A stretch of DNA of 63,001 bases from an uncultured Nitrosopumilaceae archaeon (lineage in GTDB: Archaea; Thermoproteota; Nitrososphaeria; Nitrososphaerales; Nitrosopumilaceae). Of this stretch, positions 2,574-54,869 are shown piece after piece (the stretch's first letter is position 1; each line of letters opens with the position of its first letter). The stretch covers positions 1 to 63,001 of the forward strand of contig CALCPD010000008.1 in NCBI GenBank assembly GCA_937897875.1, given 5' to 3'. A model generated the notes under the pieces. The model made no database searches. It saw only the letters and a list, made by a program, of their open reading frames with translations, and was not told the DNA's origin. The position numbers and the translations under genes are program-made.

Positions 2574-2582
2574 TAGTGCTAA
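2574..2582 (-). promoter_or_regulatory. TTRGCACTA regulon box for the 1253-2524 gene
   Basis: TAGTGCTAA on + strand; 20-nt gap to TATA (TTATATAA, 2546-2553); 50 nt from start codon. Confidence 0.8.
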
Positions 2583-2616
2583 CTAAAAGAATAAAAATAA
2601 AAATAGAAAAAGGAAG

Positions 2617-3381
2617 TTATTCCAGGTCTAGGTGAACATCAAAACTACCAAATGGTTCATTGATTCTAAAGGTATAACTCTTTGAAGAATCATACTCAAA
2701 TTCAGTTCCACCATATCCAATATTTGGACCAAATAAGATATTGAATTCTCTTGCATCACCAGGGTTCATTACGATTTGTCCACTAGTGAAATCCATTCCA
2801 GAATATTTGAATGCCTTTGAGCCATCCCAAACATCGTAGTTACAAATAGCTGGACTAGTACAGTTTATTGCTGTAATTTCAGAACTAGTATTTTCTGCAA
2901 GCATGCGGACTGACAATATTGGTTGTCCAGTTGGAGTGATTTCAAATTCATTTCCTTCAGAACCTACACCAAACCAATGATATGTAATTGGTCCTAGATC
3001 AAAGTGCTCAGCACCTGTTTTGTAGGTATGAACTAAAATCTCTTGTTTAATTGGTTTTTCACAATCAAGTCTTTTGTATGCTTTTACTATTTCTGAACAT
3101 TTTTCAAGTTCAGCCTCTAGTGAAGCAATAACAGGGTCATCGCTTGAAGATGCAGAGGATACAGATTTTTTGGATTCTTGTACTTGTGTAATACTCATGA
3201 TTCCTTCTTTGATCAAGAATTGAATTCCTTGAACAAATGAATCGTCATCAATCGTTCCTTCTGCCCACCAGCCTGCATTGTTCTTAACCCAAGCTGGAAC
3301 ATCAGCGTAAACTGATGATACACTTGAACCAACAAGCAGGAGTACAGCAATTGTAGAAATTGCAGTTAACACGGTTTTCAT
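2617..3381 (-). CDS. Secreted/surface protein, paralog of 1253-2524
   Basis: Signal peptide, WVKNNAGWWAEG module, shared CNYDVWDGSKAFKY...FGPNIGYGG domain. Confidence 0.8.
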   Translation of the reverse strand: MKTVLTAISTIAVLLLVGSSVSSVYADVPAWVKNNAGWWAEGTIDDDSFVQGIQFLIKEGIMSITQVQESKKSVSSASSSDDPVIASLEAELEKCSEIVKAYKRLDCEKPIKQEILVHTYKTGAEHFDLGPITYHWFGVGSEGNEFEITPTGQPILSVRMLAENTSSEITAINCTSPAICNYDVWDGSKAFKYSGMDFTSGQIVMNPGDAREFNILFGPNIGYGGTEFEYDSSKSYTFRINEPFGSFDVHLDLE

Positions 3382-3412
3382 TATTGAGCAAACGAGTTAA
3401 TTGTATTTAAAA

Positions 3413-3473
3413 TGGTGCTAAATTAAATTCTAGTGCTAAAATATTTTGAAATTATGAAAAAATATAGTGCTAA
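3413..3473 (-). promoter_or_regulatory. Three regulon boxes (variant 3413-3421; exact 3431-3439 and 3465-3473) in a divergent promoter region
   Basis: The 3431 box is 20 nt from TATA TTAAATAC (3403-3410) and 50 nt from the 3381 start; the 3465 box is about 21 nt before TTTATA at 3495. Confidence 0.8.
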
Positions 3474-3567
3474 CTAAATTTTAGACAATTCTTGTTTATA
3501 TGCAAATCAAAATGAATTCTCAGGGTATTGAAAAATAATTATTCAAGATCATCAAAAAGGGAGAACT

Positions 3568-4095
3568 ATGCAAGATTATCATAATGAATTAACTGAAAAA
3601 GAGGTTAAACAGTTTGTCAATGAAAGATTCTTAGAAGTAAAAAGTAGTAAAAAAATAAAAGAATTAGTTACATTTCAGGCCATGAACAAATATTTGATAA
3701 TGGCACACAATCAAGAGGAATTACGAGTATTAGGTAGAATTGTTGCCAGTAATAAAAAAAGAAAATTATCAGAAATAATGATTGATTATGAAAATAATCT
3801 AAAATTAGCTTTACAATCAAAGCCAACAATAAAAACACATAGTAATGTATTGATGCATTGTTTTGGATTTTTTTCCAAAGAATTTTCAGATTTAGAAAAA
3901 GAAAAGTTTTTTGATTTATTAACAGATTATAAAAATGAAAAAATAACAATCGGAAAAATACTTGCAGAAATTCACCCAATAGTATACAGGTTTAACAAAA
4001 CATACCTAGCAGGACAAACATATTTTTTACTATATTCAAATCCAGAACAAGGAAATATTTTTAAAATATTGGAAATCGATAAAACAAAAAAATAA
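3568..4095 (+). CDS. YbgA/DUF1722 family protein
   Basis: LVTFQAMNKYLIMAH...LGRIVA...HSNVLMHCFGFF...YLAGQTYF pattern typical of DUF1722. Confidence 0.8.
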   Translation: MQDYHNELTEKEVKQFVNERFLEVKSSKKIKELVTFQAMNKYLIMAHNQEELRVLGRIVASNKKRKLSEIMIDYENNLKLALQSKPTIKTHSNVLMHCFGFFSKEFSDLEKEKFFDLLTDYKNEKITIGKILAEIHPIVYRFNKTYLAGQTYFLLYSNPEQGNIFKILEIDKTKK

Positions 4096-4109
4096 AATTA
4101 ATTTATCAA

Positions 4110-5537
4110 TTAAGAAAAGTCAGTGTTGTATACAGGTCTAGCACCTTCAGGTACTTCAGCTGAAGCAGATTCAGATACAGGTTTTCCCCTAACTTGATAA
4201 ACCCTCACTTTATGAAATACATTGTGTGAGGAAAATATTGCCAATCCAGCAATTGCAGCACCAATGAAATTTCTGATAGTAATTTCCAAACTAGGCTCAG
4301 ATGCAACCAATGAGAGTTCAAATACGACATAAAAGTTATCAAATAACCAAAATGCCAGAGTCACCCAAGCAAGTATTCCACCTATCAAATAACCTAATCT
4401 GGCTTTCTGTTTTACAAATGAAATAGCAAACAAAATGGCAGCGTACCAAATTACGGAACCAATTAACCAAGGAATTTGCCAAACATCATTTCTATCATCC
4501 AACCAATAGTAAGTTGTGCCAATGAAAGCCATGGCACACAAAGTAATTAACAGAATTTTTTGATTCATTTTGTATGAAGTCTTTTCTCCTTCAGATTTAG
4601 AAATAGAATTGAAAGTTTTAGCCTCTTCTCTAGCAATTTGAATTGCTTGAGTCATATGTGCTAATTGGACAGGAATTAATTTTTGTGCAGAGTCATCTTT
4701 TACTACAGAATCATGTACCAGACTATCAACTAGAGGTCTTGCCAAAGAAGCTTTAACTGGAGTAACTAAATCAATCCAATACGAAGAAAGTCTAGGAGTT
4801 AAAAATGGAATTTGAATTACATTCAAGTTTCGATTAAGAATTGAAGAATACAATCTCATCAATTGTTCATATGTCATTACATCAGGTCCACCAATCTCTA
4901 GAATTTTTCCCGTAGTTTCAGGATTTTTCATTGAACCTATCAGATATTCAACAACGTTATCAACTGCAATTGGTTGTGTTTGAGATTTAACCCATTTTGG
5001 ACAAACCATTAGAGGTAATCTTTCAACAAGATATCTAAGCATAGCATAAGAGCCACCTTCAGCACCTACAATAACTGATGCTCTAATTTCAGTCACAGGA
5101 ATAGTTCCACTTGCCAAAATTTTCCCTACATCATGTCTACTTTTCATATGTTTTGATAATTCTAAACCTTCGTTAACCAAACCGCCTAGATAGATAATTC
5201 GCTTTACACCAGAATCAGTAGCAGCCTTTAAGAAATTTTGAGCCTGTTGTTTTTCTCTATTTGCAAATTCAGCCCAATCTTTTTTTGAACCTTCCATTGA
5301 ATGAAGCAAATAATATGCAGTTTCAATGCCTTCGGTAGCAGCAATTAAAGAGTTAACATCAAATGCATCGGCTTGAACACGTTTAACATTTTCAGTGTCA
5401 GGGTATTTTGATCGAGACATTGCAGTAACTGTAAATCCAGAATCAGTTAATTTTTTCAAAAGTTTTTTGCCAATAAAACCACTTGAACCAGTTACCAAAA
5501 TATCATATGGGCTGTTTTGAGAAACTGTGTCAGACAT
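4110..5537 (-). CDS. Atypical SDR NAD(P)-binding oxidoreductase (YbjT-like) with C-terminal membrane domain
   Basis: VTGSSGFIG Rossmann motif, YYLLHSM, IIYLGGL, TQPIAV; about 4 C-terminal TM helices. Confidence 0.8.
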   Translation of the reverse strand: MSDTVSQNSPYDILVTGSSGFIGKKLLKKLTDSGFTVTAMSRSKYPDTENVKRVQADAFDVNSLIAATEGIETAYYLLHSMEGSKKDWAEFANREKQQAQNFLKAATDSGVKRIIYLGGLVNEGLELSKHMKSRHDVGKILASGTIPVTEIRASVIVGAEGGSYAMLRYLVERLPLMVCPKWVKSQTQPIAVDNVVEYLIGSMKNPETTGKILEIGGPDVMTYEQLMRLYSSILNRNLNVIQIPFLTPRLSSYWIDLVTPVKASLARPLVDSLVHDSVVKDDSAQKLIPVQLAHMTQAIQIAREEAKTFNSISKSEGEKTSYKMNQKILLITLCAMAFIGTTYYWLDDRNDVWQIPWLIGSVIWYAAILFAISFVKQKARLGYLIGGILAWVTLAFWLFDNFYVVFELSLVASEPSLEITIRNFIGAAIAGLAIFSSHNVFHKVRVYQVRGKPVSESASAEVPEGARPVYNTDFS

Positions 5538-5539
5538 TG

Positions 5540-5917
5540 TTAAAATTCATCACTCAATTTCTTTAACTTGCGTAAATCGGTGATTTCTATATTACTACTA
5601 AGGGTAATGATTTTTGCAAGTTTAGGATTTGCTTTTTCGCCAAGTTTCAACACAGTATCACCACGTAATCTAACCTCAATAGTAGTTTTTTTCTGTGCCA
5701 AATCTTTTGCAAGTTCTTTAGCTTCAGAAAGTTGTTTTAAGAAACCAGGCATTTTTGTAATTTCAATTGGAATATCAATTATATCAATTATTTTTGTACT
5801 ACCGTCAACATGAAAATTCATTGTAGGGGAATCATTGCAAGTTATGCTTAATTTTCCGGTATCAAGATAAGATAAAAAATTAGCGGGAAGATCAAAGTTT
5901 TTCATTGTCATCCACAC
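5540..5917 (-). CDS. Hypothetical protein
   Basis: Tightly packed middle ORF of the 6112->4110 operon. Confidence 0.6.
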   Translation of the reverse strand: MWMTMKNFDLPANFLSYLDTGKLSITCNDSPTMNFHVDGSTKIIDIIDIPIEITKMPGFLKQLSEAKELAKDLAQKKTTIEVRLRGDTVLKLGEKANPKLAKIITLSSNIEITDLRKLKKLSDEF

Positions 5918-6112
5918 CTATTTTGTTGCTGTAATGGTTAGTTTACCGGTAAGGGAAACTGTACCTGTTGGGACAACTTGCTTGTCTTTCATAATCTTAC
6001 CAGCCATCTCAAGATTATCAAAATGATAAGTGATTGAGGCGTGTTTCTGTGTAAGTTTGTCAAAGATTTCAGCAAGAAGGTTAGCCCATTCTTGTTCTTC
6101 TGTACCTGCCAT
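5918..6112 (-). CDS. Small hypothetical protein, first gene of operon
   Basis: ATG with TATA (6134-6141) and regulon box upstream. Confidence 0.65.
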   Translation of the reverse strand: MAGTEEQEWANLLAEIFDKLTQKHASITYHFDNLEMAGKIMKDKQVVPTGTVSLTGKLTITATK

Positions 6113-6161
6113 AATAGAAAAATTTGATTTATGATATTTAACCGACGAGAAGTTTTTGGAC

Positions 6162-6170
6162 TAGTGCTAA
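6162..6170 (-). promoter_or_regulatory. Regulon box for the 6112->4110 operon
   Basis: TAGTGCTAA; 20-nt gap to TTAAATAT (6134-6141); 50 nt to start. Confidence 0.85.
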
Positions 6171-6192
6171 GAAATCACATTGTTAAAAAAAA

Positions 6193-6201
6193 TTGGCACT
6201 A
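6193..6201 (+). promoter_or_regulatory. Regulon box for the B12-binding regulator gene
   Basis: TTGGCACTA; 20-nt gap to TTAAATAT (6222-6229); 49 nt to start 6250. Confidence 0.85.
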
Positions 6202-6249
6202 GTACAAATGATTACCATTAGTTAAATATCTTAAAAGGATAAAAAATCA

Positions 6250-7104
6250 ATGGTCTACATAAGGGCTAAAAAAGTCAAATCCGATCAATATTTGTATTTA
6301 GTAAAAAGTGTCTGGGATTCTAAAAAAAGTACATCCAAACAAGAGATTGTCAAATATTTAGGAAAAGCATCAGAAGTAGTAAAGGATGACATACCATTAG
6401 AATTTAGAAATAATGCAAAAATTTTATCAGTTCTAGCATCATATAATCCTGAAGACATTCAAAAAAGAGAAGATGCAACAAAAAAATCAAAACAACAATT
6501 ATTTAAAAAATTGACAGACGGAAATATAGAAGAATGTATTAAAATTTACAAAAATTACGTTGAAATATTTAACATAGCAGATTTCTTTGATAGAATTTTA
6601 AGACCAGTGATGTCGAAAATAGGAGAAGATTGGGATAGTGGGAAATTACCAATTGCAACAGAGCATGTAGCAAGTAATGTTGCCCAAACACTAGTAAAAA
6701 TCATCATGGAGCAAGTTTCAGGTACTGGAAATAAAAAGAAAATAATGCTCTGTGTACCAGTTGGAGAAGAACATCATATAGGCTGTGATGTGCTTGAAAC
6801 TTATCTAACAATCAAGGGATTCAAAGTTTTCAATATGGGCACATCAATTCCAACTGAATCAATTATTGAGTTCATAGACATGAAAAAACCAGACATAGTT
6901 TTAATTTCAATTACTATACAAGATAATGTATTAGCTGGACAAAGATTGGCAAAGAGAATCAGAGAAAAAAGTAAAATTCCAATTTTAGTCGGAGGCTATG
7001 CATTGCAAATTGATAATCCACCAAAATTTGAAGGAAATGTAATTGGGGATGCTAGTTTGGAAGATATTCCAAAAATACTAAGAAAAATACCATTAACAAT
7101 TTAG
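6250..7104 (+). CDS. CarH/LitR-like cobalamin-binding (photoreceptor-type) protein with basic N-terminal beta-sheet domain
   Basis: W-x9-EH (WDSGKLPIATEH) in helix bundle, GEEHHIG B12 motif, Rossmann B12 domain (PDIVLIS, ILVGG). Confidence 0.85.
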   Translation: MVYIRAKKVKSDQYLYLVKSVWDSKKSTSKQEIVKYLGKASEVVKDDIPLEFRNNAKILSVLASYNPEDIQKREDATKKSKQQLFKKLTDGNIEECIKIYKNYVEIFNIADFFDRILRPVMSKIGEDWDSGKLPIATEHVASNVAQTLVKIIMEQVSGTGNKKKIMLCVPVGEEHHIGCDVLETYLTIKGFKVFNMGTSIPTESIIEFIDMKKPDIVLISITIQDNVLAGQRLAKRIREKSKIPILVGGYALQIDNPPKFEGNVIGDASLEDIPKILRKIPLTI

Positions 7105-8439
7105 AAAAGATTCAATTTTTGGAGTACATAGAATTGAACTATGTGCAGCAGAATCAGTCCCAATACCATAACTGACTGTAGAGTCTCCAACAAAAAACAA
7201 ACCATCAATTCCAGGAATTACATGAGGCATTTTAGACTTCCAAACTTTTCCAGGTTCCTTTACTACAGATTCAACTAATTTCCATGCCATTGGACGTTCC
7301 CAAAGTAATGAAGAAGTAAATTTTGGATAAATTGAAGATATTTCTTGCTTCATTTTACTTACAATATTTTTAATTTTTTCAGAATCTTCGGTTTCAGAAG
7401 GAAGCACAGGAGTCCCTGCAATAATCAAATGCTCACCAGAAGGAGAAACAGATGGGGTAATATTAGAAATGAAAAAAATACCCTTAGTAACATAATCATC
7501 ACCCACAGGAAAAACAACTTGACGAGTATCTATTTGGGAATTTAATGCAAAATGTACTTCAACAACAGATGTTGTTTTATTTAATTTATCAATTTTTTGT
7601 ACAAATTTTCTGTCAATTACATTTTCTTCAAATAATTGATTTAATGCAGTATATGCAGGATATGAAATTACAACAGAATTTGTAGGGATGAGTTTTTCAG
7701 AATTTGAGGAGTCATTTACAATAACTCCCGTTACTTTAGAATTTTCAATGACTACTTTCTTCACAGATTGTTTCATTTGAATTTCGCCACCTTTCTCTAA
7801 AATATAGTCTCCAAGAACATTACAAATAGAATCATAACCACCGCCATCAGGGTATGCAAACTCACTGGTTCCACCCTTAAACGGATTAGCTCTAATGATG
7901 GTTCTAGCAAATTCACCTAGTGAAATGTGATCAGCAGTATCAGCAAAAGCTAACATGCATACTGCTTCAAAAAATGCGTTTGTGTCAGCATCCAAGTTAT
8001 CGGTAATTTTGGTTAGTGGTATTTCATCCCATAATTCAGTTTTTTCAATAGAGGAAAATGCCAATGGCAATAATAATTTAAGAAGTCTAACTCTACTTTT
8101 GAATGGTATCAAAGATAGTTTCAGTAAATCAATCATACCTTTAGGATAAATATGAAATCCAGTTGTAGCATAGAATGCAATATCATCGACTTTTGCAAGC
8201 TTTAATCTAGATTCAATTCCCAAATTTTTTAAAATAGTGAAAATGGCAGATTTTTTGTAAAAAGGCATTATATGAAATCCGTTATCAAGAACATGATTTC
8301 GATACTTCATCGATGCGGTTCTGCCACCCAATTTACCAGATTTTTCCAATACCATTACTTTGTGACCTTTATTTGCTAGCAAAGCACCAGTTGTCAAACC
8401 ACCTACTCCTGCGCCAATAATGACTGTAGGAGAAGACAT
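7093..8439 (-). CDS. FAD-dependent oxidoreductase, phytoene desaturase (CrtI)/amine oxidase superfamily
   Basis: IIGAGVGGL...LEK...LGGR, DNGFH, YPDGG, C-terminal GLFFVGDS. Confidence 0.8.
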   Translation of the reverse strand: MSSPTVIIGAGVGGLTTGALLANKGHKVMVLEKSGKLGGRTASMKYRNHVLDNGFHIMPFYKKSAIFTILKNLGIESRLKLAKVDDIAFYATTGFHIYPKGMIDLLKLSLIPFKSRVRLLKLLLPLAFSSIEKTELWDEIPLTKITDNLDADTNAFFEAVCMLAFADTADHISLGEFARTIIRANPFKGGTSEFAYPDGGGYDSICNVLGDYILEKGGEIQMKQSVKKVVIENSKVTGVIVNDSSNSEKLIPTNSVVISYPAYTALNQLFEENVIDRKFVQKIDKLNKTTSVVEVHFALNSQIDTRQVVFPVGDDYVTKGIFFISNITPSVSPSGEHLIIAGTPVLPSETEDSEKIKNIVSKMKQEISSIYPKFTSSLLWERPMAWKLVESVVKEPGKVWKSKMPHVIPGIDGLFFVGDSTVSYGIGTDSAAHSSILCTPKIESFLNC

Positions 8440-8487
8440 GAGTAAATTTCTTAATTTTTCTATTTAATTGAGGCTAACTTAATTCTC

Positions 8488-8496
8488 TAGTGCTAA
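8488..8496 (-). promoter_or_regulatory. Regulon box for the CrtI-family gene
   Basis: TAGTGCTAA; 20-nt gap to TTAAATAG (8460-8467); 49 nt to start. Confidence 0.85.
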
Positions 8497-8508
8497 CTAC
8501 TTTTGAAT

Positions 8509-8949
8509 TTAAATTGATTTAGAATAGGATTCAGCACAAACAATGAATTCAGACATTACAGAATTCATTCTTTTTAATAAATAAATTTTCAAAAATGGAA
8601 TTAATCGTAAAATACCATTAAGTTTTAAATCCACAATAATTAAAATTTCAGTTCCAATTGAATTTGAATTATAAGTTTCAATAAAGGAAGTACCTTTAGC
8701 AGGACCACTTAAAATAAACACTTTGTGGATATTGGGTTCAATAATTACATGTTTAGTTTTGATGTCTATTTTTTTACCTAAAAAAATAATTGATTCTAAT
8801 ACAATTTTTTCATTTGAAGAATCACTAATTATTTTTAATGATTTAAAATATTTTGGCATGATTTTATGAAAATTTTCCACATCAGTACTAATTTGAAATA
8901 TTTTATCAGGTTCAAGAGTACTTTTTTGAATTAGATTAAAACTACTCAT
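8509..8949 (-). CDS. SRPBCC/polyketide cyclase-like (START-fold) protein
   Basis: IFQISTDVENFHKIMP...SGPAKG pattern, about 146 aa. Confidence 0.7.
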   Translation of the reverse strand: MSSFNLIQKSTLEPDKIFQISTDVENFHKIMPKYFKSLKIISDSSNEKIVLESIIFLGKKIDIKTKHVIIEPNIHKVFILSGPAKGTSFIETYNSNSIGTEILIIVDLKLNGILRLIPFLKIYLLKRMNSVMSEFIVCAESYSKSI

Positions 8950-9304
8950 TAGTGATCTTTTTAGATAAATAATCCCATAAATTTGATTTTATCACTTTCA
9001 TATCAGGATAAAATTTTTGTATTTCAAAACATAGATTGACCAAAGATTGTTTTACAGCATCAGTTTTAGCAGGATCAGTTAAAGGGTATAATCGAATTGT
9101 TGTTTTTTCTTTACTAGTCATCAGATGAATAAAGAATTCATGGTGGGAATCATCAATTACAACTGCAGACAATAAGGCATTACTACCTCGCGTATCAATA
9201 TACATATCTTGAATTTTAATTAAAGGAGATTTTTGAAATATGGGCTTAAACAAAATTGAAAAATCAAAAAGATTCAAACTTTTATCCAATACAATATGAG
9301 GCAT
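8942..9304 (-). CDS. Hypothetical protein, co-transcribed with the SRPBCC gene
   Basis: ATG at 9304; 8-nt overlap with the downstream gene. Confidence 0.65.
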   Translation of the reverse strand: MPHIVLDKSLNLFDFSILFKPIFQKSPLIKIQDMYIDTRGSNALLSAVVIDDSHHEFFIHLMTSKEKTTIRLYPLTDPAKTDAVKQSLVNLCFEIQKFYPDMKVIKSNLWDYLSKKITNE

Positions 9305-9352
9305 CAACTATTTAGAAAAATAATTTATAAAAACATAATTAAATAAAATTCA

Positions 9353-9428
9353 TAGTGCCAATTAATTTTAAACATTCTAGTGGTAAAAAAATAGTAATTA
9401 AGCTTTATTTTTGACCATTTTAGCACTA
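9353..9428. promoter_or_regulatory. Divergent promoter with regulon boxes at 9353-9361 (-), 9378-9386 (variant) and 9420-9428 (+)
   Basis: Both exact boxes are 49 nt from their starts (9304 and 9477) and 20 nt from TATA elements (9325-9332 and 9449-9456). Confidence 0.85.
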
Positions 9429-9476
9429 GATAAAAAAATTTCAGTCTTTTAAATAAAATAAAAACGTAATCAGACT

Positions 9477-10388
9477 ATGTTAACTGAATTAATTCATCAA
9501 AAAAATTGTAAAAAACATGAAATGATTACAGATATGCACACAGGAGAAATTGCATGCAGTAGTTGTGGAATTGTTTCATTAGAACCAATATTAGATCTGG
9601 GTTCCGAAACTGCAGGTCTTAATGCAAACGATTATCAAAATAATTCAAGAGTAGGATCCAAAAGATCACTAAAAATGATTGACATGGGACTATCCACGCT
9701 AATTGAAGCTAAAGACAAGGATGTAACAGGAAAATCATTATCAATTGAAAATCGAAGAATGTTCTACAGATTAAGAATGTGGGACAGAAACAGTCGTTCT
9801 GCAGTTACTTCAAAATCATTTCAAAAAGCATTTACATTACTTGATGCAATTAGTTCAAAATTAGGACTACCAGAATCAGTAGTTGAAGAGAGTGCATATT
9901 TGTTTAGAAAAATTGCAGCAAGAAAAATTCTTGCAGGTAGATCAACAGCAGCTATGTTATCTGCAACAATTTACATAACATGCAGAATCACAGATACACC
10001 AAGAACATTACAAGATATTTCAGATGCAGGTAACATTAAGAAAAAAGTGCTACAAAGGACATATAGATTTCTTGCAAAAGAAATGGATCTCAGTCCCGAA
10101 GCATACACTCCATCAGAATTTGTTACCAGAATAGCAAAAGGATTGTCTATCTCTGAAAAAACACAAAGATTGACGTTCAAAATATTGGATTTATGTGCAA
10201 AAAAGCATGTTTCAACAAGTAAAAATCCAATGGCAATGGCTGCAGCAGCCATACATTTGGCATCAACAATCAATGCTGAGAAAGTGTCTCAATTGAAGAT
10301 ATCAAAGATTTCAGGTATCAGCGCAGTAACAATCAGAGAAAGAAGAAAAGAGATTATAGAAAAAGTTGGAGAAATAGAAATTGGGTAG
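9477..10388 (+). CDS. tfb: Alternative transcription initiation factor IIB paralog
   Basis: Zn ribbon (CKKH...CSSCG), B-reader/linker (GLST, RLRMWD), two cyclin repeats; divergent C-terminal helix ISAVTIRERRK. Confidence 0.92.
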   Translation: MLTELIHQKNCKKHEMITDMHTGEIACSSCGIVSLEPILDLGSETAGLNANDYQNNSRVGSKRSLKMIDMGLSTLIEAKDKDVTGKSLSIENRRMFYRLRMWDRNSRSAVTSKSFQKAFTLLDAISSKLGLPESVVEESAYLFRKIAARKILAGRSTAAMLSATIYITCRITDTPRTLQDISDAGNIKKKVLQRTYRFLAKEMDLSPEAYTPSEFVTRIAKGLSISEKTQRLTFKILDLCAKKHVSTSKNPMAMAAAAIHLASTINAEKVSQLKISKISGISAVTIRERRKEIIEKVGEIEIG

Positions 10389-10563
10389 AACTTGTAGAAA
10401 TATCTGTAAAAGATATCAAGCAGATCCAGTTCCAAATAAAATCAGATATGAAATTGGACAAAAAAGATGTACATTTTGCGGAATTTTCTTATCTTTAGAT
10501 GATGTAAGATGCATTTGTTGTAAAGCAGTCTTAAGAACAAAACCAAGAAGTAAGAAGAAATAA
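10381..10563 (+). CDS. Small Cys-rich zinc-finger protein
   Basis: CRNIC...KRCTFC...RCICC...LRTKPR; overlaps the TFB stop codon. Confidence 0.75.
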   Translation: MGRTCRNICKRYQADPVPNKIRYEIGQKRCTFCGIFLSLDDVRCICCKAVLRTKPRSKKK

Positions 10564-10568
10564 TTTTT

Positions 10569-11306: not shown

Positions 11307-11315
11307 TTAGCACTA
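11307..11315 (+). promoter_or_regulatory. Regulon box upstream of the PPOX-family gene
   Basis: TTAGCACTA in divergent intergenic region; 69 nt to ATG 11384, which has a GGTGA RBS-like site (probably a leadered transcript). Confidence 0.7.
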
Positions 11316-11383
11316 TTAAAAAAAAGTTAATTATTCATATAGATAAAAAATAAAAACATAGAGTTGCAATACAAGGTGAAAAA

Positions 11384-11809: not shown

Positions 11810-11947
11810 ATGAATGATGATGGATGTCCCACGTGTGGTTCAAAAAATTATGGAACTGTAGAAATGAAGAAAAATAGTGAAGGACTAGTTGCTTGGAAAA
11901 AACAATGTTATAATTGTAAAAAATTTTGGCATGGTTCAGACTTTTAG
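11810..11947 (+). CDS. 45-aa zinc-ribbon protein (not in ORF track)
   Basis: MNDDGCPTCGSK...KQCYNCKKFWHGSDF; starts 3 nt after the PPOX stop. Confidence 0.65.
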   Translation: MNDDGCPTCGSKNYGTVEMKKNSEGLVAWKKQCYNCKKFWHGSDF

Positions 11948-11971
11948 CACTATAATCTATATTTAGCACTA
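11944..11971 (+). promoter_or_regulatory. Tandem regulon boxes (11944-11952, 11963-11971) for the 12002 gene
   Basis: First box is 20 nt from TTTAAATA (11973-11980) and 50 nt from ATG; second box abuts the TATA. Confidence 0.85.
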
Positions 11972-12001
11972 GTTTAAATAAAATATTTCTTAAGATATGG
12001 T

Positions 12002-47492: not shown

Positions 47493-47542
47493 CAATTGTC
47501 TAAAGAGATTTTACTTAATATAATATTCGAAATTTAAAATTC

Positions 47543-47551
47543 TAGTGCCAA
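47543..47551 (-). promoter_or_regulatory. Regulon box for the 47091-47492 gene
   Basis: TAGTGCCAA; about 19 nt from TTATATTA (47516-47523); 51 nt from ATG. Confidence 0.8.
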
Positions 47552-47570: not shown

Positions 47571-47978
47571 TTACTCTTCAAAAGTATTTACAAAGTCAAC
47601 AATAGACATAATTTTACCCATTTCTACATAACGACCATAGCTTTTTGTTTTTGTTTTCTTAAGCGGAGTGTTATCAACATATACCATTAACAAATGAAAT
47701 GCATCAAGGGGAACTGTAACTTGTTTGATTTTTTCAAATGATGCTATATGATAAAAGGCACGACCAAGGTCATCAGAATCTTCAATTTTACACCTAGTAA
47801 TCCAGTCAGCAGATTCACGAACCAAGGTTTTTTTAATTTCAGGTAAAGGAACTTGGACTTTAGAATCATCACGAATAGTATTCCATAAAATATTTCCAGA
47901 AGTATCACTAATAGCAGTGAACATAATTGTTTGATCATAATCCATCAACATATGAAGAAGTTTTTCGTATCTTGACAT
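47571..47978 (-). CDS. Roadblock/profilin-like small domain protein, paralog 2
   Basis: Aligns with 47091-47492, including C-terminal SYG..VEMG.I.SIV.FV. Confidence 0.65.
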   Translation of the reverse strand: MSRYEKLLHMLMDYDQTIMFTAISDTSGNILWNTIRDDSKVQVPLPEIKKTLVRESADWITRCKIEDSDDLGRAFYHIASFEKIKQVTVPLDAFHLLMVYVDNTPLKKTKTKSYGRYVEMGKIMSIVDFVNTFEE

Positions 47979-48031: not shown

Positions 48032-48040
48032 TTGGCACTA
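48032..48040 (+). promoter_or_regulatory. Regulon box for the DICT-photolyase operon
   Basis: TTGGCACTA; 20-nt gap to TTTATAAC (48061); 51 nt to ATG 48091. Confidence 0.85.
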
Positions 48041-48090
48041 GATTTTCTCAATAAAATTAATTTATAACTGATTTCATAATCATATACATC

Positions 48091-48645
48091 ATGGATAACC
48101 CCTATGGAGATTTTGTACATGAAGTGTGGGAAGAATTCCCACAACTAGCAGAATGGCATAATTTAGATAATGACATTTTACCAATTTGGAAACTAGAGCA
48201 ATTCATTGAAGCTGGTTATCATAATTTTGATGCAGACAGAAAACCACTTTATCATCTCAGTAGAATGATTGAAAATTATGCACAAGAGCACAAGGAACCA
48301 CTGTTAGCTACATTTGAAAAAATTGCAAAATTCTCTTATGTTAAAGAAAGATATCAGAAGATGGTCAAGGATATGCCAAAAGTGTGGATAATTGCGGATT
48401 TTGATGACGAGGTAATACCTACGGATGTAGTAATACCAAACTCAGAATTTCTAAGCTGCAGTAATACCAATTTAGCAAATGTATGGACAGTTATCACAAG
48501 AGGACCATATGGACCATTTGGCTTAATCGCAGAAGAATATGAGGATGGTAAATTTAGAGGATTCTTCACACTTAATTCCAATGTATGCAGATACGCACTA
48601 AAAGTAATGGGAACAACATTGGACTCCAAATTTGATATTCAATAA
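48091..48645 (+). CDS. Stand-alone DICT sensory domain protein 1
   Basis: LYHLSRMIENYA...LLATFE...ERY...W.VI..GP..LIAE matches the DICT pattern. Confidence 0.7.
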   Translation: MDNPYGDFVHEVWEEFPQLAEWHNLDNDILPIWKLEQFIEAGYHNFDADRKPLYHLSRMIENYAQEHKEPLLATFEKIAKFSYVKERYQKMVKDMPKVWIIADFDDEVIPTDVVIPNSEFLSCSNTNLANVWTVITRGPYGPFGLIAEEYEDGKFRGFFTLNSNVCRYALKVMGTTLDSKFDIQ

Positions 48646-48667
48646 TTTTTAGAAATAAAAATACCTA

Positions 48668-50014
48668 ATGTATAAAAAATCATTATTCATTTTCCGTAGA
48701 GATTTAAGATTAGAAGATAACATAGGGTTGATTGAATCACTGCAAAATTCTATAGAAGTAATTCCATGTTTTATCTATGATGAAAATCTAATTAATAATT
48801 TAAAAGATTCAAAATTTAGATGGAATTTTCTTAATGAATCATTAACAGATTTAGATGTAGAATTAAAGAAAAAAGGAACAAGATTACAATTACTAGAAGG
48901 TAAGCCAGAGAAAGTAATAGAGAAAATAATTAAAAAACATAAAGTGGAAGCAATATTTTTAAATACAGATTTTACAAATTATTCACAAAAACGAGATGAG
49001 AAAATATATCAAACTTGTAAGAAAAATGAAATATCATTTCATAGTACATTAGACTTTTTACTTCATAATCCAAATGAAATAAAAACAAATGAAGGGTCAC
49101 CATACACAATTTATTCATTTTTCTATAAAAAAGCTAAGCAATTTCCAATCAGAAAGATTTCTAAAAATATTAAAAAGAATTATTCAAAAGAAATTATTTC
49201 TAACAGCGAAATAAGAAAAAATGAAATAAAAAATAATGAAATAATTGGTGGGCGAAAAGAGGCATTAAAAATTTTAAAACATCTAGACAAATTCAGAAAT
49301 TATGATAAAGTAAGAGATTTTCCAGAATTAAATCAAACAACAATGCTTGCAGCACATAACAAATTTGGAACAGTATCAATAAGAGAAGTTCATAACAAAA
49401 TAAAAGAAGAATTAGGCGTAGATCACACAATAATGGGGGAGATATACTGGCGAGAATTTTTCAGCTATATTTTATTCCATTTTCCATATTCACAAAAAAA
49501 ATCATTTAGAAAAAAATTTCAAAAAATACCATGGGCAAAATCAGAAGAATTATTCAAAAAATGGTGTGAAGGGAAAACAGGCTTTCCTATTGTTGATGCA
49601 GGAATGAGACAATTAAACAAAACAGGGTTCATGCACAATAGAGTCAGAATGATTGTGGCATCATTTCTAACAAAAGATCTACATATGGACTGGAAATTAG
49701 GGGAAAAATATTTTGGAGAAAAATTAATTGATTATGATCCTGCAGTTAATTCTGGAAATTGGCAATGGGCAGCGTCAACAGGATGTGATTCAGTACCATA
49801 TTTTCGAATTTTTAATCCGTGGAGACAACAAGAAAGATTTGATTTAGATTGTAAGTATATTAAAAAATGGGTTCCAGAATTGCAAAAAATGAAATCAAAA
49901 ACTATCCATGAATTATGGAAAGAATTTCCAGGTAATTTAGAGTATCCAAAACCAATACTAATACATAAAATCGAAGCAGATAAAACAAAATTAATTTTTA
50001 AGTTACAAAAATAA
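48668..50014 (+). CDS. phr: Deoxyribodipyrimidine photolyase (class I CPD photolyase/cryptochrome family)
   Basis: FRRDLRLEDN, WREFF, TGFPIVDAGMRQL..TGFMHNRVRM, DYDPAVNSGNWQW, FRIFNP. Confidence 0.95.
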   Translation: MYKKSLFIFRRDLRLEDNIGLIESLQNSIEVIPCFIYDENLINNLKDSKFRWNFLNESLTDLDVELKKKGTRLQLLEGKPEKVIEKIIKKHKVEAIFLNTDFTNYSQKRDEKIYQTCKKNEISFHSTLDFLLHNPNEIKTNEGSPYTIYSFFYKKAKQFPIRKISKNIKKNYSKEIISNSEIRKNEIKNNEIIGGRKEALKILKHLDKFRNYDKVRDFPELNQTTMLAAHNKFGTVSIREVHNKIKEELGVDHTIMGEIYWREFFSYILFHFPYSQKKSFRKKFQKIPWAKSEELFKKWCEGKTGFPIVDAGMRQLNKTGFMHNRVRMIVASFLTKDLHMDWKLGEKYFGEKLIDYDPAVNSGNWQWAASTGCDSVPYFRIFNPWRQQERFDLDCKYIKKWVPELQKMKSKTIHELWKEFPGNLEYPKPILIHKIEADKTKLIFKLQK

Positions 50015-50024
50015 ATGATTATAG

Positions 50025-50033
50025 TTGGCACTA
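50025..50033 (+). promoter_or_regulatory. Regulon box for DICT protein 2
   Basis: TTGGCACTA; 21 nt to TTATATAC (50055); 50 nt to ATG 50083. Confidence 0.85.
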
Positions 50034-50082
50034 TTTTAAAAAATTATCAGTGGATTATATACTCAGAGAAAAATAATCTAGT

Positions 50083-50634
50083 ATGACGGAACATTTTGTA
50101 AGTTTCATCGATGACATATGGAACAAATTTCCAAAATTTAAAGAAGTTAAAAATACAGACCTTACTGATCACAACATTCTGTGGACATTAGAAGAATACA
50201 GAAAAATAAATTATGTGAATTTTCAAACAGGTAAAAAGGAATTATACAGATTAAGCATATTAATAGAAAATTATGCAGTTAAACACAACACTCCATTATT
50301 AGCAACTTTTGAAACTGAAGCAAGATACAAGTATGTAGAAGAAAGATACAGAGAAATCCTAGATAAAATTTCAAAGGCATGGATAATTGGTAATTTTAAT
50401 AATCCAGATTTAGCTCCACACCCACCACCATCTGCAGAAGTAGTTAGTTGTGATGGAACAAATATTTCCCCAATGTGGATTGTAGTTACAAAAGGAGAAA
50501 ACGGACCATTCGGATTAGTAGCTGAAGATCTAGGAGACAGTGAATACAGAGGTTTCTTTACATCAAATACAAGTATTTTAGAAAAAGTAATTGAAGATAT
50601 TAACGAGCAATTAAAAATTAAAATTACAATGTAA
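50083..50634 (+). CDS. Stand-alone DICT sensory domain protein 2
   Basis: Clear paralog of 48091-48645 (LLATFE, GPFGL.AE, RGFFT). Confidence 0.7.
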   Translation: MTEHFVSFIDDIWNKFPKFKEVKNTDLTDHNILWTLEEYRKINYVNFQTGKKELYRLSILIENYAVKHNTPLLATFETEARYKYVEERYREILDKISKAWIIGNFNNPDLAPHPPPSAEVVSCDGTNISPMWIVVTKGENGPFGLVAEDLGDSEYRGFFTSNTSILEKVIEDINEQLKIKITM

Positions 50635-50746: not shown

Positions 50747-52150
50747 ATGGATCAAATATCTGTAACGTCAACACTGGAGAGAATTCAGGAATTAATAGAT
50801 AAAAATTCAGGGGACACAGGGAGATTAAATCACATAATAGATTTCATAAATAACGAAAAGCCACTATACAAAACAGATAGAATTTACTTAGAAAATAAAT
50901 TAAATCACCAAGTCATAATTACACCCAAAAAAATAATTCCTGAAGAAGATAGTTCATCAAAAAAAATTAAAAAATTATTGAAAATGGGTAAAGGAGATCC
51001 AGGAAGATTAGAACATATTTTGATAATGTTAGAAAAAGACAAAAAACTGTATAATTCAGATAAACAATATTTAGTAAATAATTTTGGAATATCAATTATT
51101 GAAAGTCAAAAAATAGAAAATAATGTAAAAATAGAAAAAAATAATGAATTAAAGGAAAAAATTAAAGTAGTAATGCCTAAAAATTGGAAGGCAGAAAAAA
51201 AGGAACCAGAATTACAAAAAATATTTAAAAAAATAGAAAAAGAAGAAAAAAAAATAAATATGAAAAATAAAAATTCAAAAGAAATCAATATTAAAAAAAA
51301 TGAATTAAATAATTTAATTATAGAACGAAAAGATAATGAGGGTAAAATTAATGAAGAAAGAAAATTTATAGAAGACAAAATTAATGCTGAAAGAAAATTA
51401 ATTCAAAAACAAACACAGTTAACTAAAGAAGTGAATTTACAAAAAAATGAATTATCAAATCTCAAGGAAGAAAGAAATTCAATATTAAAAAATATTGAAT
51501 TACAAAAAAGTACAACAATGAAAGATCTAGTTGTTCAGAAAAAACAATTAATTCAAGCACAAAAAGAGCAAACAAAAATAGAATCACAAGTTAATGCAGA
51601 AAAAACAAGATTATCTAAAATGGTTAAAGAACAAAAAGACAGATTAATCGAACAAGCAAAAATTGCTCAAGAAATCAAGGAAAAACAAGTAGAATTAGAT
51701 AGAACAAAACAGGATTATAATACAATTTGTACACAAGTTAATGCAGAAAAAAAGGAAATAAAACAATCAGAAAAATTAAAAATAGAGATCAAAGTAATGG
51801 AGCAAGAACTAAAAAAATCAGTAAAAGATAGATTAAAAATTTCAAAAATCATCATTAAAGAAAAAAACGCAATTACGATTAAAGCAAAACAAGAGAAGAA
51901 AAGACACAAGCAACAAGAAATAGGTAGAAAACAATTCAAAAAAGAGCAGAAAATTTTGGAATTATTAGAAACAAAGAATAAAAAAATAGAACAAAAAATA
52001 AAAGAAAATAATCAAAAATTGAAGCAGAAGCAGATAAAAATTAAAAACAAGATGGAAAAAAAGAACAAAGTCCTTCAAACATTAGTAAAACAAAAGAAGC
52101 CTGTGAAAAAAATGTATAAAAATACAACTAAAAGGCAATTAAAAAAGTAA
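50747..52150 (+). CDS. K/E/Q-rich coiled-coil protein with duplicated N-terminal GDxGRL motif
   Basis: GDTGRLNHI...LYKTD..YL and GDPGRLEHI...LYNSD..YL, then a long heptad-rich region. Confidence 0.7.
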   Translation: MDQISVTSTLERIQELIDKNSGDTGRLNHIIDFINNEKPLYKTDRIYLENKLNHQVIITPKKIIPEEDSSSKKIKKLLKMGKGDPGRLEHILIMLEKDKKLYNSDKQYLVNNFGISIIESQKIENNVKIEKNNELKEKIKVVMPKNWKAEKKEPELQKIFKKIEKEEKKINMKNKNSKEINIKKNELNNLIIERKDNEGKINEERKFIEDKINAERKLIQKQTQLTKEVNLQKNELSNLKEERNSILKNIELQKSTTMKDLVVQKKQLIQAQKEQTKIESQVNAEKTRLSKMVKEQKDRLIEQAKIAQEIKEKQVELDRTKQDYNTICTQVNAEKKEIKQSEKLKIEIKVMEQELKKSVKDRLKISKIIIKEKNAITIKAKQEKKRHKQQEIGRKQFKKEQKILELLETKNKKIEQKIKENNQKLKQKQIKIKNKMEKKNKVLQTLVKQKKPVKKMYKNTTKRQLKK

Positions 52151-52155
52151 AATAT

Positions 52156-53016
52156 CTATACAGTTGGAATAATTTCAGGTTTCTTAGATTGTATTAATTT
52201 TAAAATTTTTGTAATGGATAGATTTTGTCCAATAGAACCCCAATTTACAGAGTCATCTTTCACTGCTTGGCCGCCAACAATAATTGGAATGGCATATTGA
52301 TCATTTATTTTTTGAATCATTCTTTTAGCAGATAAAATATTTTCGTCAAGTGTAATTGAAACAAAAATGCAGTCAGGGTTGTTATTTTCAATAGATTCCA
52401 TAATAGAAGAAACAGGAGTAAATGGGGATAGGTTGTAAACAGTATTTCCTTTGGTGAGAAGTTGAGATTCAAGTACTTTTGTACCAAAAACATGTTGTTC
52501 ACCATAAGGTACGCAGATTAAGATTTTTTTCTTAGTCATGTTGGTGGAATTATTTTCTAAAATTAGATTCATTAAATCCTGTACTGCATTATAACAAGTT
52601 GTTTGAGTACCTAAATCAATTTTTTTACTACTTCCCAATAATTCAATATCATCAATTAGAGGAATTAAAACATCGTTAAGGAAGGATTCAAAGCCATAAA
52701 TTGTTTGATAGGATTCAACCAATGAATTTGCTTCAACATAGTCGCCATTTTTGAATGTAGAGAGCAAATCCTTTTGAAGTTTTTGAGTAATTTCAGTTTG
52801 AATATTAGGTTGAAAATATTTTTGATTCATAAAATAATCAGATATTTTTTTTGAATCACGGTAGTCTTCAGGAATATCATTAATAGATACGTCAGATTCT
52901 ATGCCCAAATATTTGATAATAGTCTGTTTTGATGTCTTTTTTTTAGCATCCCATGTGCTTTTTACAAGATAAAGATATTTTTGTCCACGAATGGATTTAA
53001 TTCTCAAATATGCCAA
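52156..53016 (-). CDS. Second cobalamin-binding regulator paralog (degenerate photoreceptor motif)
   Basis: Same N-terminal domain and GEQHVFG motif as 6250-7104; TTG start. Confidence 0.82.
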   Translation of the reverse strand: MAYLRIKSIRGQKYLYLVKSTWDAKKKTSKQTIIKYLGIESDVSINDIPEDYRDSKKISDYFMNQKYFQPNIQTEITQKLQKDLLSTFKNGDYVEANSLVESYQTIYGFESFLNDVLIPLIDDIELLGSSKKIDLGTQTTCYNAVQDLMNLILENNSTNMTKKKILICVPYGEQHVFGTKVLESQLLTKGNTVYNLSPFTPVSSIMESIENNNPDCIFVSITLDENILSAKRMIQKINDQYAIPIIVGGQAVKDDSVNWGSIGQNLSITKILKLIQSKKPEIIPTV

Positions 53017-53062
53017 TGAATAAAGTATGATTTTAGTATTTAATCCGATTACGCACCTAGAT

Positions 53063-53143
53063 GAGTACCAAGATAGCAGCAGAAGAAATTTAGATAAAAT
53101 ATTTTAAAAATGGTTCATATATGAAACAAAATGTGTGGCACCA
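53063..53143. promoter_or_regulatory. Degenerate regulon boxes: 53063-53071 (TTGGTACTC on -) and 53135-53143 (GTGGCACCA on +)
   Basis: Two mismatches each, but 19-20 nt from TATA-like elements (53036-53043; 53164-53170). Confidence 0.45.
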
Positions 53144-53197
53144 ATAGTCCATATCACAAACTCTTAAAAGCAGAAAATATTTAAAAAAAATATCAAA

Positions 53198-53758
53198 ATG
53201 AGCTATACAGAAGTTAGTCATGAACATTTGGAATCAATGGACAATACACACATCTTGTTATTTCACGAAGAACAAAAAAAAGCTGAAGAGATAGAATTTA
53301 GTTTTATTAAAACGGGTTTAGAGAATAAGCAAACTTGCTTCTATACAACAAATGATCCTGAAAAATTAAAAGAAAATATGAAAAAATTTGGAATTGATGT
53401 TGATACCAGCATTAAAAATGGATTGCTAAATATTGTTAAAATTCCAAAAGAGTTCGAAGATTACGAAAAAATGATCATGGATAAAGTAAAGTCACTTCCA
53501 CAAGATGGAAAAATCAGAGTTGTTTCAACTCATTATTTTGATTTCAATAAAGAAGCCAAAACAGAATCAATGGAAGAAATAGAGCAATGTGTAGATGATA
53601 GATTCCATAAAATCCCAGGAAATTTCATCTGTTCATTTCACGTACCCAGTGTAAACAAAGAATTAGCACCAAAATTTATGAAGAATTTGCTTGATTCACA
53701 TCATGAAATATTATTCCTTACAAAAGAGGATCAAATAGAAAAATTCAGTTTTGTTTAA
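53198..53758 (+). CDS. MEDS-like sensory domain protein
   Basis: HILLFHE......FSFIKTGLE....C.Y...ICSF...LL..H pattern. Confidence 0.7.
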   Translation: MSYTEVSHEHLESMDNTHILLFHEEQKKAEEIEFSFIKTGLENKQTCFYTTNDPEKLKENMKKFGIDVDTSIKNGLLNIVKIPKEFEDYEKMIMDKVKSLPQDGKIRVVSTHYFDFNKEAKTESMEEIEQCVDDRFHKIPGNFICSFHVPSVNKELAPKFMKNLLDSHHEILFLTKEDQIEKFSFV

Positions 53759-54030
53759 GTTAATCTTTGAGTAATTTCATTAATTAAATCATTTACATTA
53801 GAATAATCCTGATAGAATTTATTTCCTAACTCAGTAGTATCGATTTCATTTTCCATTTTAATTAATCCTTTTTCATTCATTTCATCAAGATATTTTAATA
53901 ATTTATCATATGAAGTGTTTGATTTGTGTTGAAGCCGTGTTTTAGAAATTTCTTCATTATCTTGTTTTTCAATTAAAATTGCAGAGAAAACATCAAAATA
54001 GATTTGTAATTTACTTCGTTTGTCCCTCAT
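53755..54030 (-). CDS. Small winged-helix DNA-binding protein
   Basis: KRSKLQIY.D...SKTRL....NTSY..L.KYL..M..KGLI...TELG. Confidence 0.85.
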   Translation of the reverse strand: MRDKRSKLQIYFDVFSAILIEKQDNEEISKTRLQHKSNTSYDKLLKYLDEMNEKGLIKMENEIDTTELGNKFYQDYSNVNDLINEITQRLT

Positions 54031-54302
54031 ATTGACTTCATTTTAAAATTAATTTGTGCTCATTAAAAAATCATACCTACATCCTACGATAGTCATTACA
54101 AGTAGAAATGGTTTTAAATTAAAAGTTAAGGGGTTGCAGTCATGGGTTTTGGAACACGTAGTAATCCCACAGCAAACATACTAGGGAAAAGGATGACTAG
54201 AATTAAGATCTGTACATAGCCAAAAATTATAAGGAATTTGAACTAATTTCAATCAAATAGTATCTTGAAAACAAACCTATTTCTAAAACTAGAAAAGTCA
54301 AG

Positions 54303-54399
54303 GATCAGGTTTGCACGCCTGAGATTATATGGTAAGTGATTTAGATTGCTGATCATAAAAGTCTCCAGTGGTAACTTCGGTTGCCACTGACATATTTTT
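54303..54399 (+). ncRNA. Candidate structured RNA or terminator (two hairpins, cUUCGg tetraloop)
   Basis: TCAGGT-TTGCAC-GCCTGA (54305-54322) and CAGTGGTAAC-TTCG-GTTGCCACTG (54366-54389), then a T-run. Confidence 0.35.
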
Positions 54400-54429
54400 G
54401 ATAGTAATTGAATTTTTATTTTAATTAAA

Positions 54430-54648
54430 TTAATTTTTTGAATCCAAATTATCCTGAACTTTCTTTTGAATCACAATTATACACTGATGACAAATTATGG
54501 ATTTATCAGACATGTTAGATATAATATCATTATTTTGAAAATCAGAATCATATGTTATACCAATTACCAATTTATTAGACCACACTTCAAAATCTTGTTT
54601 TTCTTTTCCACAAACAAAACAATTCATGGGATTAATAGATTCAATCAT
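54430..54648 (-). CDS. Small zinc-finger protein
   Basis: CFVC...ICHQC. Confidence 0.65.
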   Translation of the reverse strand: MIESINPMNCFVCGKEKQDFEVWSNKLVIGITYDSDFQNNDIISNMSDKSIICHQCIIVIQKKVQDNLDSKN

Positions 54649-54683
54649 AACTTAAGGGTGGCGATAAAATAAGAATTGTTCAA

Positions 54684-54812
54684 TCAACACAATACATCCT
54701 TACAATGAGGCATTAGAAAAGACATTATAATGAATCCCCCAAATACAGTGATTCCCAATGTAAGAGACAATCCAAGTAACAATGTTTTCTTATCATCTAA
54801 TTTCATTACCAT
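54684..54812 (-). CDS. 42-aa single-TM protein (not in ORF track)
   Basis: MVMKLDDKKTLLLGLSLTLGITVFGGFIIMSFLMPHCKDVLC; variant box 49 nt upstream. Confidence 0.6.
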   Translation of the reverse strand: MVMKLDDKKTLLLGLSLTLGITVFGGFIIMSFLMPHCKDVLC

Positions 54813-54860
54813 GATGCAATTTTAAAAAGAAAGTATATCAAGAATATTAATAAAAATTGC

Positions 54861-54869
54861 TAGTGGTAA
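54861..54869 (-). promoter_or_regulatory. Variant regulon box (TTACCACTA)
   Basis: TAGTGGTAA on + strand; 49 nt from ATG 54812; about 19-20 nt from TTGATATA. Confidence 0.6.

Follow-up and report, generated by a model that had tools for sequence, protein, structure and literature searches.

A stretch of 63,001 nucleotides (nt) of genomic DNA from an uncultured Nitrosopumilaceae archaeon (assembly GCA_937897875.1, contig CALCPD010000008.1, positions 1 to 63,001), called the window below, contains a short promoter element, TTRGCACTA, in front of the genes of two clusters. The organism is a marine Nitrosopumilus-type ammonia oxidiser as judged by its nearest named relatives (regulator identity up to 92%). 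A sequence-only reading of the window had reported 14 exact copies of this box and all 14 coordinates were found to match, with 0.58 copies expected from 100 dinucleotide shuffles of which the largest gave 2. The geometry that it described for eleven of the 14 copies was also recovered: they lie on the sense strand with 57-59 nt from the first base of the box to the start codon, i.e. 48-50 nt between box and start, and a TATA-like word at +28 to +30. Box 1 denotes the main site upstream of TATA and box 2 a weaker second copy at +18 to +20; offsets are counted from the first base of box 1 and scores such as 9/10 give the positions matching the 10-bp form TTRGCACTAK. L, G and C numbers denote loci, genomes (G000 is this genome) and contigs of this genome, respectively.

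Cluster 1 includes two secreted proteins. The one of 423 amino acids (aa; 1253..2524, minus strand, no Pfam family) has a single box at 2573..2582 (-, 10/10). The 254-aa core target (2617..3381, -) has box 1 at 3430..3439 (-) and a box 2 (9/10, +18) at 3412..3421 (-) which abuts the TATA, and a further box at 3464..3473 (-) lies in the gap shared with a DUF1722 (YbgA-like) gene (3568..4095, +), a conserved neighbour without its own box. The box at 6161..6170 (-) precedes a run encoding a 64-aa protein, a 125-aa protein and an NAD-dependent SDR oxidoreductase (4110..6112, -). That at 6193..6202 (+) lies in the promoter of a B12-binding protein in the middle of the cluster, here called regulator A (6250..7104, +), where a box 2 (8/10, +19) at 6212..6221 (+) occupies the position of the TFB-recognition element (BRE), with TATA at 6222. 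Boxes at 8487..8496 (-) and, as a single box, 9352..9361 (-) precede a flavin adenine dinucleotide (FAD) oxidoreductase (7093..8439, -), which belongs to the phytoene desaturase/HpnE-like superfamily and scores below all NCBIfam family cut-offs, and a pair of 121-aa and 146-aa proteins (8509..9307, -), the latter with a faint polyketide-cyclase/SRPBCC match (E 0.23). A single box at 9420..9429 (+) leads a TFB paralog and a 60-aa cysteine-rich protein (9477..10563, +). Also present are a PNPOx/F420-like gene behind a box at 11307..11316 (+) and a 106-aa membrane protein with box 1 and a perfect box 2 (+19) at 11944..11972 (+). Three copies depart from the shared geometry: the additional copy at 3465 lies 34 nt upstream of that at 3431, the copy at 11963 is the second one (+19) inside the 11944 promoter, and 11307 has a TATA-like word at the usual place with the start 77 nt away and is not conserved in orthologs. 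The copy at 11944 does overlap the stop of a 45-aa open reading frame (ORF; 11810-11947), as had been stated.

Cluster 2 contains a 134-aa protein (47091-47495, a paralog of 47571-47978) behind a box at 47542..47551 (-), followed at 48091..50634 (+) by DICT-like gene 1 with its box at 48032..48041 (+), a cyclobutane pyrimidine dimer (CPD) photolyase 23 nt behind DICT-like 1, and DICT-like gene 2 (faint DICT match, E 0.093) with its box at 50025..50034 (+). The cluster carries the same boxes in G010 and G016. Three variants had been placed at the same TATA offset, and only part of this claim stood. The variant at 54861 (54860..54869, -, 9/10) lies 57 nt before a 42-aa ORF (54684-54812) and is kept in L132 and L133. 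The one at 53135..53144 (+) is weak at 7/10, with a TATA-like word at 53164; L132, L134 and L135 retain its core in front of the MEDS gene. The third, at 53063 (7/10), was rejected as a box copy and belongs instead to a separate 14-bp palindrome at 53052..53065, considered below with paralog B.

Assembled RNA contigs, which carry no starts, levels or light state and have no silent-stretch control, cover many of the box-led genes, and several bridge neighbours (48306-48716 between DICT-like 1 and the photolyase, 9901-10478, 5726-6088 and 5373-5732). One RNA contig spans the 42-aa membrane-type ORF at 54684-54812 plus the next ORF.

Distribution of the box in the genome and in relatives

The whole genome of 1.22 Mb has 36 exact copies of the 9-mer, with 14 on this contig against 1.86 expected if they were uniformly distributed. 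The total is ordinary, 60 permuted 9-mers giving a median of 15 and a range of 0-67, and the signal is therefore one of clustering and position. A TATA-like word at +28 to +30 follows 16 of the 28 exact 10-mers against 9 of 284 one-mismatch sites. An origin by chance or AT bias was ruled out by the shuffles, by position and by a reversed-pattern control. Outside the window the full geometry was found on C6 before a 321-aa gene, on C87 before a 122-aa gene and a third DICT-like gene, and once on C66, where no ORF follows. It also recurs on C26 (15659-15814), where the box promoter precedes an unlisted 32-aa cysteine-rich ORF; a similar promoter is present in several relatives including G128, which lacks the regulator. 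On C6 an exact box at 21280 is directed into the 3' end of an opposite-strand 168-aa gene, ferritin-like by reading of the sequence; G010 and G022 retain this site, where no conserved ORF accompanies it and the TATA is poor, and an antisense transcript is possible.

Motif statistics were taken from 80 loci around regulator orthologs. These contained 472 exact 9-mers, 264 of them at 55-60 nt before a start and 219 of those at 57 or 58. Given that position 10 was G or T in all 264 aligned promoters, the motif is TTRGCACTAK, of 10 bp. Of 209 promoters, 166 have a TATA that starts at +29 and 207 one that starts at +27 to +30, the gap between the end of box 1 and TATA being 19 nt. A strict TATA stood at +28 to +30 in 227 cases, the mirror position giving 6 at most, and the first four bases read TTGG in 27% of sites. 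The earlier description of a palindromic core, TAG-NN-CTA, does not hold in view of these two figures, and the site acts as an oriented direct repeat. A palindromic Lrp-type site was ruled out by the same one-orientation use.

Box 2 was present with at least 8/10 in 152 of the 264 promoters, and it ends where TATA begins, i.e. over the BRE position. The promoters fall into a double-box class, comprising those of the regulator (73/78), the secreted protein (60/72), the SDR gene (11/12) and the FAD oxidoreductase (30/51), and a single-box class in which box 2 was counted in 0/31 for the TFB paralog, 0/32 for the 121-aa gene and 0/5 for the 134-aa pair. The lock on TATA persists without box 2, with 59 of 68 strict TATA matches at +29 and 66 at 28-30. 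Repeat spacings of 11 or 22 were not found in the aligned promoters. There was no purine-rich BRE in the box promoters and likewise none in 55 background promoters, the genome background having no clear BRE consensus. The TATA lies ∼28 nt before the start codon; archaeal TATA elements are described in PMC5512572 as centred 26-27 bp before the start site, and the geometry of box, TATA and start fits leaderless transcripts.

Box, box 2 and TATA are unchanged in loci of 58-62% GC (L203, L205), in which the only regulon genes seen in 16 kb are the regulator and the secreted protein (L203 also has DUF1722). The sequence-only reading had named three outcomes that would refute it; two of these, a lack of positional bias and a lack of conservation in orthologous promoters, were looked for, and neither was found. 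The sequence geometry and conservation support the proposal that one site, fixed relative to TATA in an activator-type position, coordinates both clusters.

Membership varies among the genomes of the family that are at least 92% complete (n=131), of which 68 carry the regulator head at E < 1e-10 (carriers) and 63 do not; three weak head matches (E 2e-4 to 8e-4) were scored negative and a frameshifted copy in G073 positive. The FAD oxidoreductase is present in 40 genomes, 38 of them carriers, and the window photolyase in 20, 19 of them carriers. The window photolyase recurs inside the cluster in varied arrangements, in one case (L127) immediately after the regulator, and of 19 other photolyase loci 14 adjoin a box-led gene or a regulator homolog. 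The TFB paralog occurs in 61 of the 80 loci and the 60-aa protein in 52. In its orthologs the last helix of the TFB paralog is altered, reading ISAVTIR.R..E against VTEVTIRNR..G (the TFB at 33-668 was compared), and this box-led factor may read a different BRE. A complex prediction of regulator A with the TFB paralog scored 0.00, which is evidence neither way. No cobalamin synthesis or transport genes were found among the box-led families. The domain of the secreted core target matches no PDB or Pfam family, and its Atlas matches to DUF4352/DUF5067 score under 0.9 and are leads only.

Regulator A and its link to the box

The sequence-only reading had suggested a binder of the Ptr2/Lrp type. 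This does not agree with the results: the site is oriented, no Lrp/AsnC match was found among the 69 window proteins (the search covered the window only), and the protein tracking the box is regulator A, a CarH-type B12-binding protein with a β-sheet head. Its residues 82-255 form two B12-binding Pfam domains, the four-helix bundle and the Rossmann domain of CarH type. According to PMC9304148, CarH proteins are called by two signatures, Wx9EH and D/ExHx2G/P-x41-SxT/V-x22-27-GG, the first of which forms the cap over the adenosyl group and is critical to activity as a photoreceptor. Both are present in regulator A, as W128-x9-E138-H139 and E173-x-H175-xx-G178-x41-S220-x-T222-x25-GG; of 79 orthologs, all have Wx9EH and 78 have the full B12 motif. 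The top Foldseek match of the model is Thermus thermophilus CarH (5C8A, E 1.3e-12) and the best PDB matches by sequence profile are photocobilins. CobS and cob(I)alamin adenosyltransferase are present in the genome. These features suggest that regulator A probably senses light through adenosylcobalamin (AdoCbl).

The MerR winged helix is missing: there is no RxWERRY motif and no Pfam match to it, and the NCBIfam CarH model NF052513 gives 54 bits against a cut-off of 400, over residues 79-227 only. The head is instead a predicted three-stranded sheet (strands 2-9, 12-23 and 28-39, per-residue confidence (pLDDT) ∼88), rich in Lys, Arg and Tyr, and its residues are the most conserved part of the protein. 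It has no Pfam match as a family. It is shared with the N-terminus of P0241, a 526-aa DDE_Tnp_1 protein (hhalign 97.4%, 41 columns, 41% identity), for which IS1634-like is used as a tentative label. In a profile search the head was also found on HNH proteins. Since it occurs on HNH proteins and a DDE transposase, the head may be expected to bind DNA. The profile search gave 343 relatives; of the top 150, most of the long ones have the same fusion of head and B12 module. Wherever an origin is recorded, the Atlas clusters with this architecture are archaeal; among the named members are Ca. Nitrosocaldus and a Thermoplasmatota metagenome-assembled genome, and one source labels a member automatically as a light-induced MerR regulator. 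A phylum-wide sample of 213 genomes of other families gave no head, a search that falls short of the necessary reach as the named relatives in Ca. Nitrosocaldus and Thermoplasmatota indicate.

A metagenome scan with a distant homolog returned five loci, two of them with the regulator architecture (L179, L181), and L179 has no box. At L181 the homolog (23% identity over 128 aa) adjoins a homolog of the window gene 10569-11255, and its intergenic region contains a near-copy of the box twice, in identical form and 45 nt apart (586-635), with a TATA spacing that differs from the regulon promoters. Extra ORFs matching the B12 part only, and adjoining photolyases or paralog B, were seen in L121, L125 and L136; those of L121 and L136 look like stand-alone B12 domains and that of L125 may be cut by the locus edge.

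The box lies, within one mismatch and at 55-60 nt, before 79 of 82 regulator-family genes, the window paralog B being among the exceptions. Carriers have a mean of 4.5 box promoters per genome and non-carriers 0.24, in counts of the box-TATA-start pattern that double a few sites via variable gaps and come from genomes that are kin; the reversed-pattern control gave 8 and 10 matches in total, respectively. Three or more box promoters were found in 41 of 68 carriers against 0 of 63 non-carriers. The box count is higher in the carriers in 12 of the 13 genera which hold both kinds of genome, the other being a tie.

The secreted-protein gene was chosen as a test case because the other targets vanish together with the cluster and this one persists, its C-terminal domain being present in 67 of 68 carriers and 19 of 63 non-carriers. 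Every one of the 62 copies linked to a regulator has a box of at least 9/10. Three of the 19 non-carrier homologs are truncated or at a contig end, and of the 16 testable only one has a box, without TATA at +29. The six non-carrier homologs at 40-58% identity all lack the box. A distant paralog in the carrier G062 has a box at 59 nt and its counterparts in the same-genus non-carriers G083 and G100 have none. The above results indicate that the box is very probably bound by regulator A.

Two apparent natural losses were seen. In L202 (G073) the regulator is frameshifted and truncated with the boxes intact, and in L200 (G165) there is no regulator match, two box promoters are kept and the target is truncated.

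Paralog B (52156..53016, -), in cluster 2, retains the head and the lower B12 motif but has lost Wx9EH, and its promoter has no box. CarA likewise lacks the Trp, according to PMC9304148. The 14-bp palindrome in the promoter of paralog B, consensus CTCACCWWGGTGMG, is kept before paralog B in L043, L132, L134, L135 and L136, and beside the MEDS/HTH_45 pair in L191-L194. It is not a genome-wide motif, with at most one intergenic site per genome. It is the putative site of HTH_45, the winged-helix protein encoded alongside, which would form a second layer. In the window the MEDS-domain gene (+) and the HTH_45 gene (-) are convergent (53198..54030), and since both directly adjoin regulator A elsewhere (L151, L192, L193), the module of paralog B, MEDS and HTH_45 may be a second signalling layer of this same system. 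Between DICT-like 2 and paralog B, at 50747-52150, lies a 467-aa lysine-rich, coiled-coil-like protein without family match, in the same place in G010. Just outside cluster 2 is an Mrr-type restriction endonuclease (44604-45350), likewise in G010.

Proposed mechanism, rival readings and known systems

We propose that TTRGCACTAK is the operator of regulator A, whose predicted light-switched form would activate a photoprotection regulon, and we place the probability of this at about 0.5. The head would read box 1 and the B12 module would set activity according to light, the switched form then activating the photoprotection genes from box 1. At high protein level box 2, over the BRE, would become occupied, or an oligomer would bridge it, and the promoter would shut down; this feedback would act mainly at the regulator's own and the secreted-protein promoters. 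Induction of the TFB paralog would give a wider response. According to PMC5512572 archaeal activators typically bind upstream of the BRE and repressors over or downstream of it. Activation is favoured because the BRE-clearing site keeps a fixed phase and orientation even without box 2, and activation from box 1 seems somewhat better than an even bet on this sequence evidence. Double-box promoters, including that of the regulator, suggest self-limiting feedback given that box 2 overlies the BRE. The fuller scheme, of an archaeal B12 photoreceptor with a transposase-related β-sheet head as light-switched activator, from which a cascade runs via an alternative TFB and a paralog that is not photoactive, with single-box promoters activated and double-box promoters self-limited, is more tentative and falls a little short of even odds.

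Several results weigh against the proposal. Light activation needs an inversion of CarH logic, since every characterised CarH, as described in PMC9304148 and PMC10979010, is a repressor that occupies its DNA in the dark. The His that follows the Trp and forms the light-state ligand in TtCarH is found in 0 of 79 orthologs. Of the 68 carriers 49 have no match to the window photolyase, none of the 10 photolyase genes in the 80 loci has its own box, the second photolyase of this genome (C40) has none either, and the constant member of the regulon is the secreted protein, in nearly all carriers. Fold searches with the head gave nothing under E 0.9 in Foldseek and a best Z of 4.0 in VIA-align, and show neither a new fold nor a difference. 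Five carriers have no strict-pattern match, 12 of 63 non-carriers have one or two, and G165, a single-contig non-carrier, retains two box promoters. Many of the non-carrier homologs of the secreted protein are distant paralogs (25-29% identity). The co-occurrence overstates independence: the genomes are related to one another, regulator-linked loci served to refine the pattern, and loss of the cluster removes the targets too. Weak BREs in the target promoters are not demonstrable, given that the background lacks a clear consensus.

The most serious rival keeps the same protein and site with the classic CarH logic. A dark AdoCbl oligomer anchored on box 1 would extend across box 2, or across non-specific DNA where the BRE lies, and block TFB; light would then release the oligomer. 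All characterised CarH proteins in the sources cited above work in this way, light induction of the photolyase follows without any inversion, and the 152 promoters with box 2 have it exactly at the BRE position. However, whole target families without box 2 keep the 29-nt lock in one orientation, which is tighter than steric blocking should need, and there is no 11-bp repeat periodicity. This dark repression is judged unlikely, though it has to be weighed seriously.

A lesser rival holds that the regulator binds the box and mainly reports cobalamin supply, or a redox or ligation state, and not light, the secreted core target serving cobalamin or surface physiology with the photolyase a later recruit. 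The excess of regulator genomes (68 of 131) over those with the window photolyase (20), the minimal regulons of regulator plus secreted protein only, and the existence of a paralog B without Wx9EH would all be accommodated. Against this, Wx9EH is invariant in the 79 orthologs of regulator A, no cobalamin synthesis or transport gene is among the box-led families and photolyases repeatedly adjoin the cluster. This rival is judged improbable.

Slightly less probable again is a reading in which the box is bound by a different co-inherited protein, with the 60-aa cysteine-rich protein, the TFB paralog, HTH_45 and a Lrp/Ptr2-type protein as candidates, and the B12 protein is an AerR-like co-regulator. 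The 60-aa protein and the TFB paralog do accompany many of the 80 loci (52 and 61), the latter has its altered last helix and the head is a candidate DNA binder. Against this reading, none of these genes lies near the box and the regulator in L203-L205 and L207, the palindrome that goes with HTH_45 is another one, the box is used in one orientation and not as a palindrome, and the head is the most conserved part of regulator A.

The proposal that regulator A activates from this operator in response to light gives a named candidate protein, an exact putative operator and a target list. If true, it would identify the switch by which ammonia-oxidising archaea sense light and would add a DNA-binding domain not described before, together with its site; an activating B12 photoswitch for optogenetics might also follow. 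Light inhibition of archaeal ammonia oxidation has been invoked to explain the location of nitrification in sunlit water (PMC9891703), and photolyases are reported to mark surface-adapted strains (PMC4839502). In the literature searched, which took in few subscription journals, no description of the operator, head or regulon was found, nor a light sensor or light regulon for ammonia-oxidising archaea; the main-text portions consulted of a differential RNA sequencing paper (PMC5069720) give no thaumarchaeal promoter data. AerR-like receptors have already been remarked on in Archaea (PMC6199135).

The closest known system is CarH/LitR (T. thermophilus 5C8A/5C8D/5C8E; Myxococcus; Bacillus megaterium), which resembles regulator A in the Wx9EH bundle and Rossmann B12 motif with exact spacing, in being the top structural match, in the N-terminal output domain, in having a site in its own promoter and in the linkage to photolyase and desaturase-like genes. 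It differs in that regulator A has the predicted three-stranded sheet in place of a MerR winged helix, in that the CarH operator consists of tandem 11-bp nnnnTnnACAn repeats over the core promoter and the element here is a 10-bp box with a second copy at +18/+19, and in that the main site here lies upstream of the core promoter, on archaeal TBP/TFB promoters. The CarH 11-bp repeats were not found, the second copy being only at +18/+19 with none at 11 or 22. Given that the MerR head and the 11-bp repeats are both missing, regulator A was not filed as a CarH member. The archaeal upstream activators (Ptr2, EarA, the ara-box factor and GvpE) share a site at a fixed distance upstream of BRE/TATA, as described in PMC5512572. 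In contrast to these, the candidate binder here is not of the Lrp/HTH kind and has a B12 sensor attached, and the site is oriented and asymmetric with a second site over the BRE in about half of the promoters. The N-terminal domain of the DDE transposase and HNH proteins aligns with the regulator head, which is here fused to a B12 sensor. AerR of Rhodobacter capsulatus (PDB 7TE2) has a similar B12-binding module (E 4e-4). It is described in PMC6199135 as a B12 photoreceptor whose light-loaded form promotes activation, and by analogy it may serve as a loose precedent for an inverted, light-activating logic. AerR acts through the transcription factor CrtJ, whereas regulator A fuses the B12 module to its own conserved candidate DNA-binding head.

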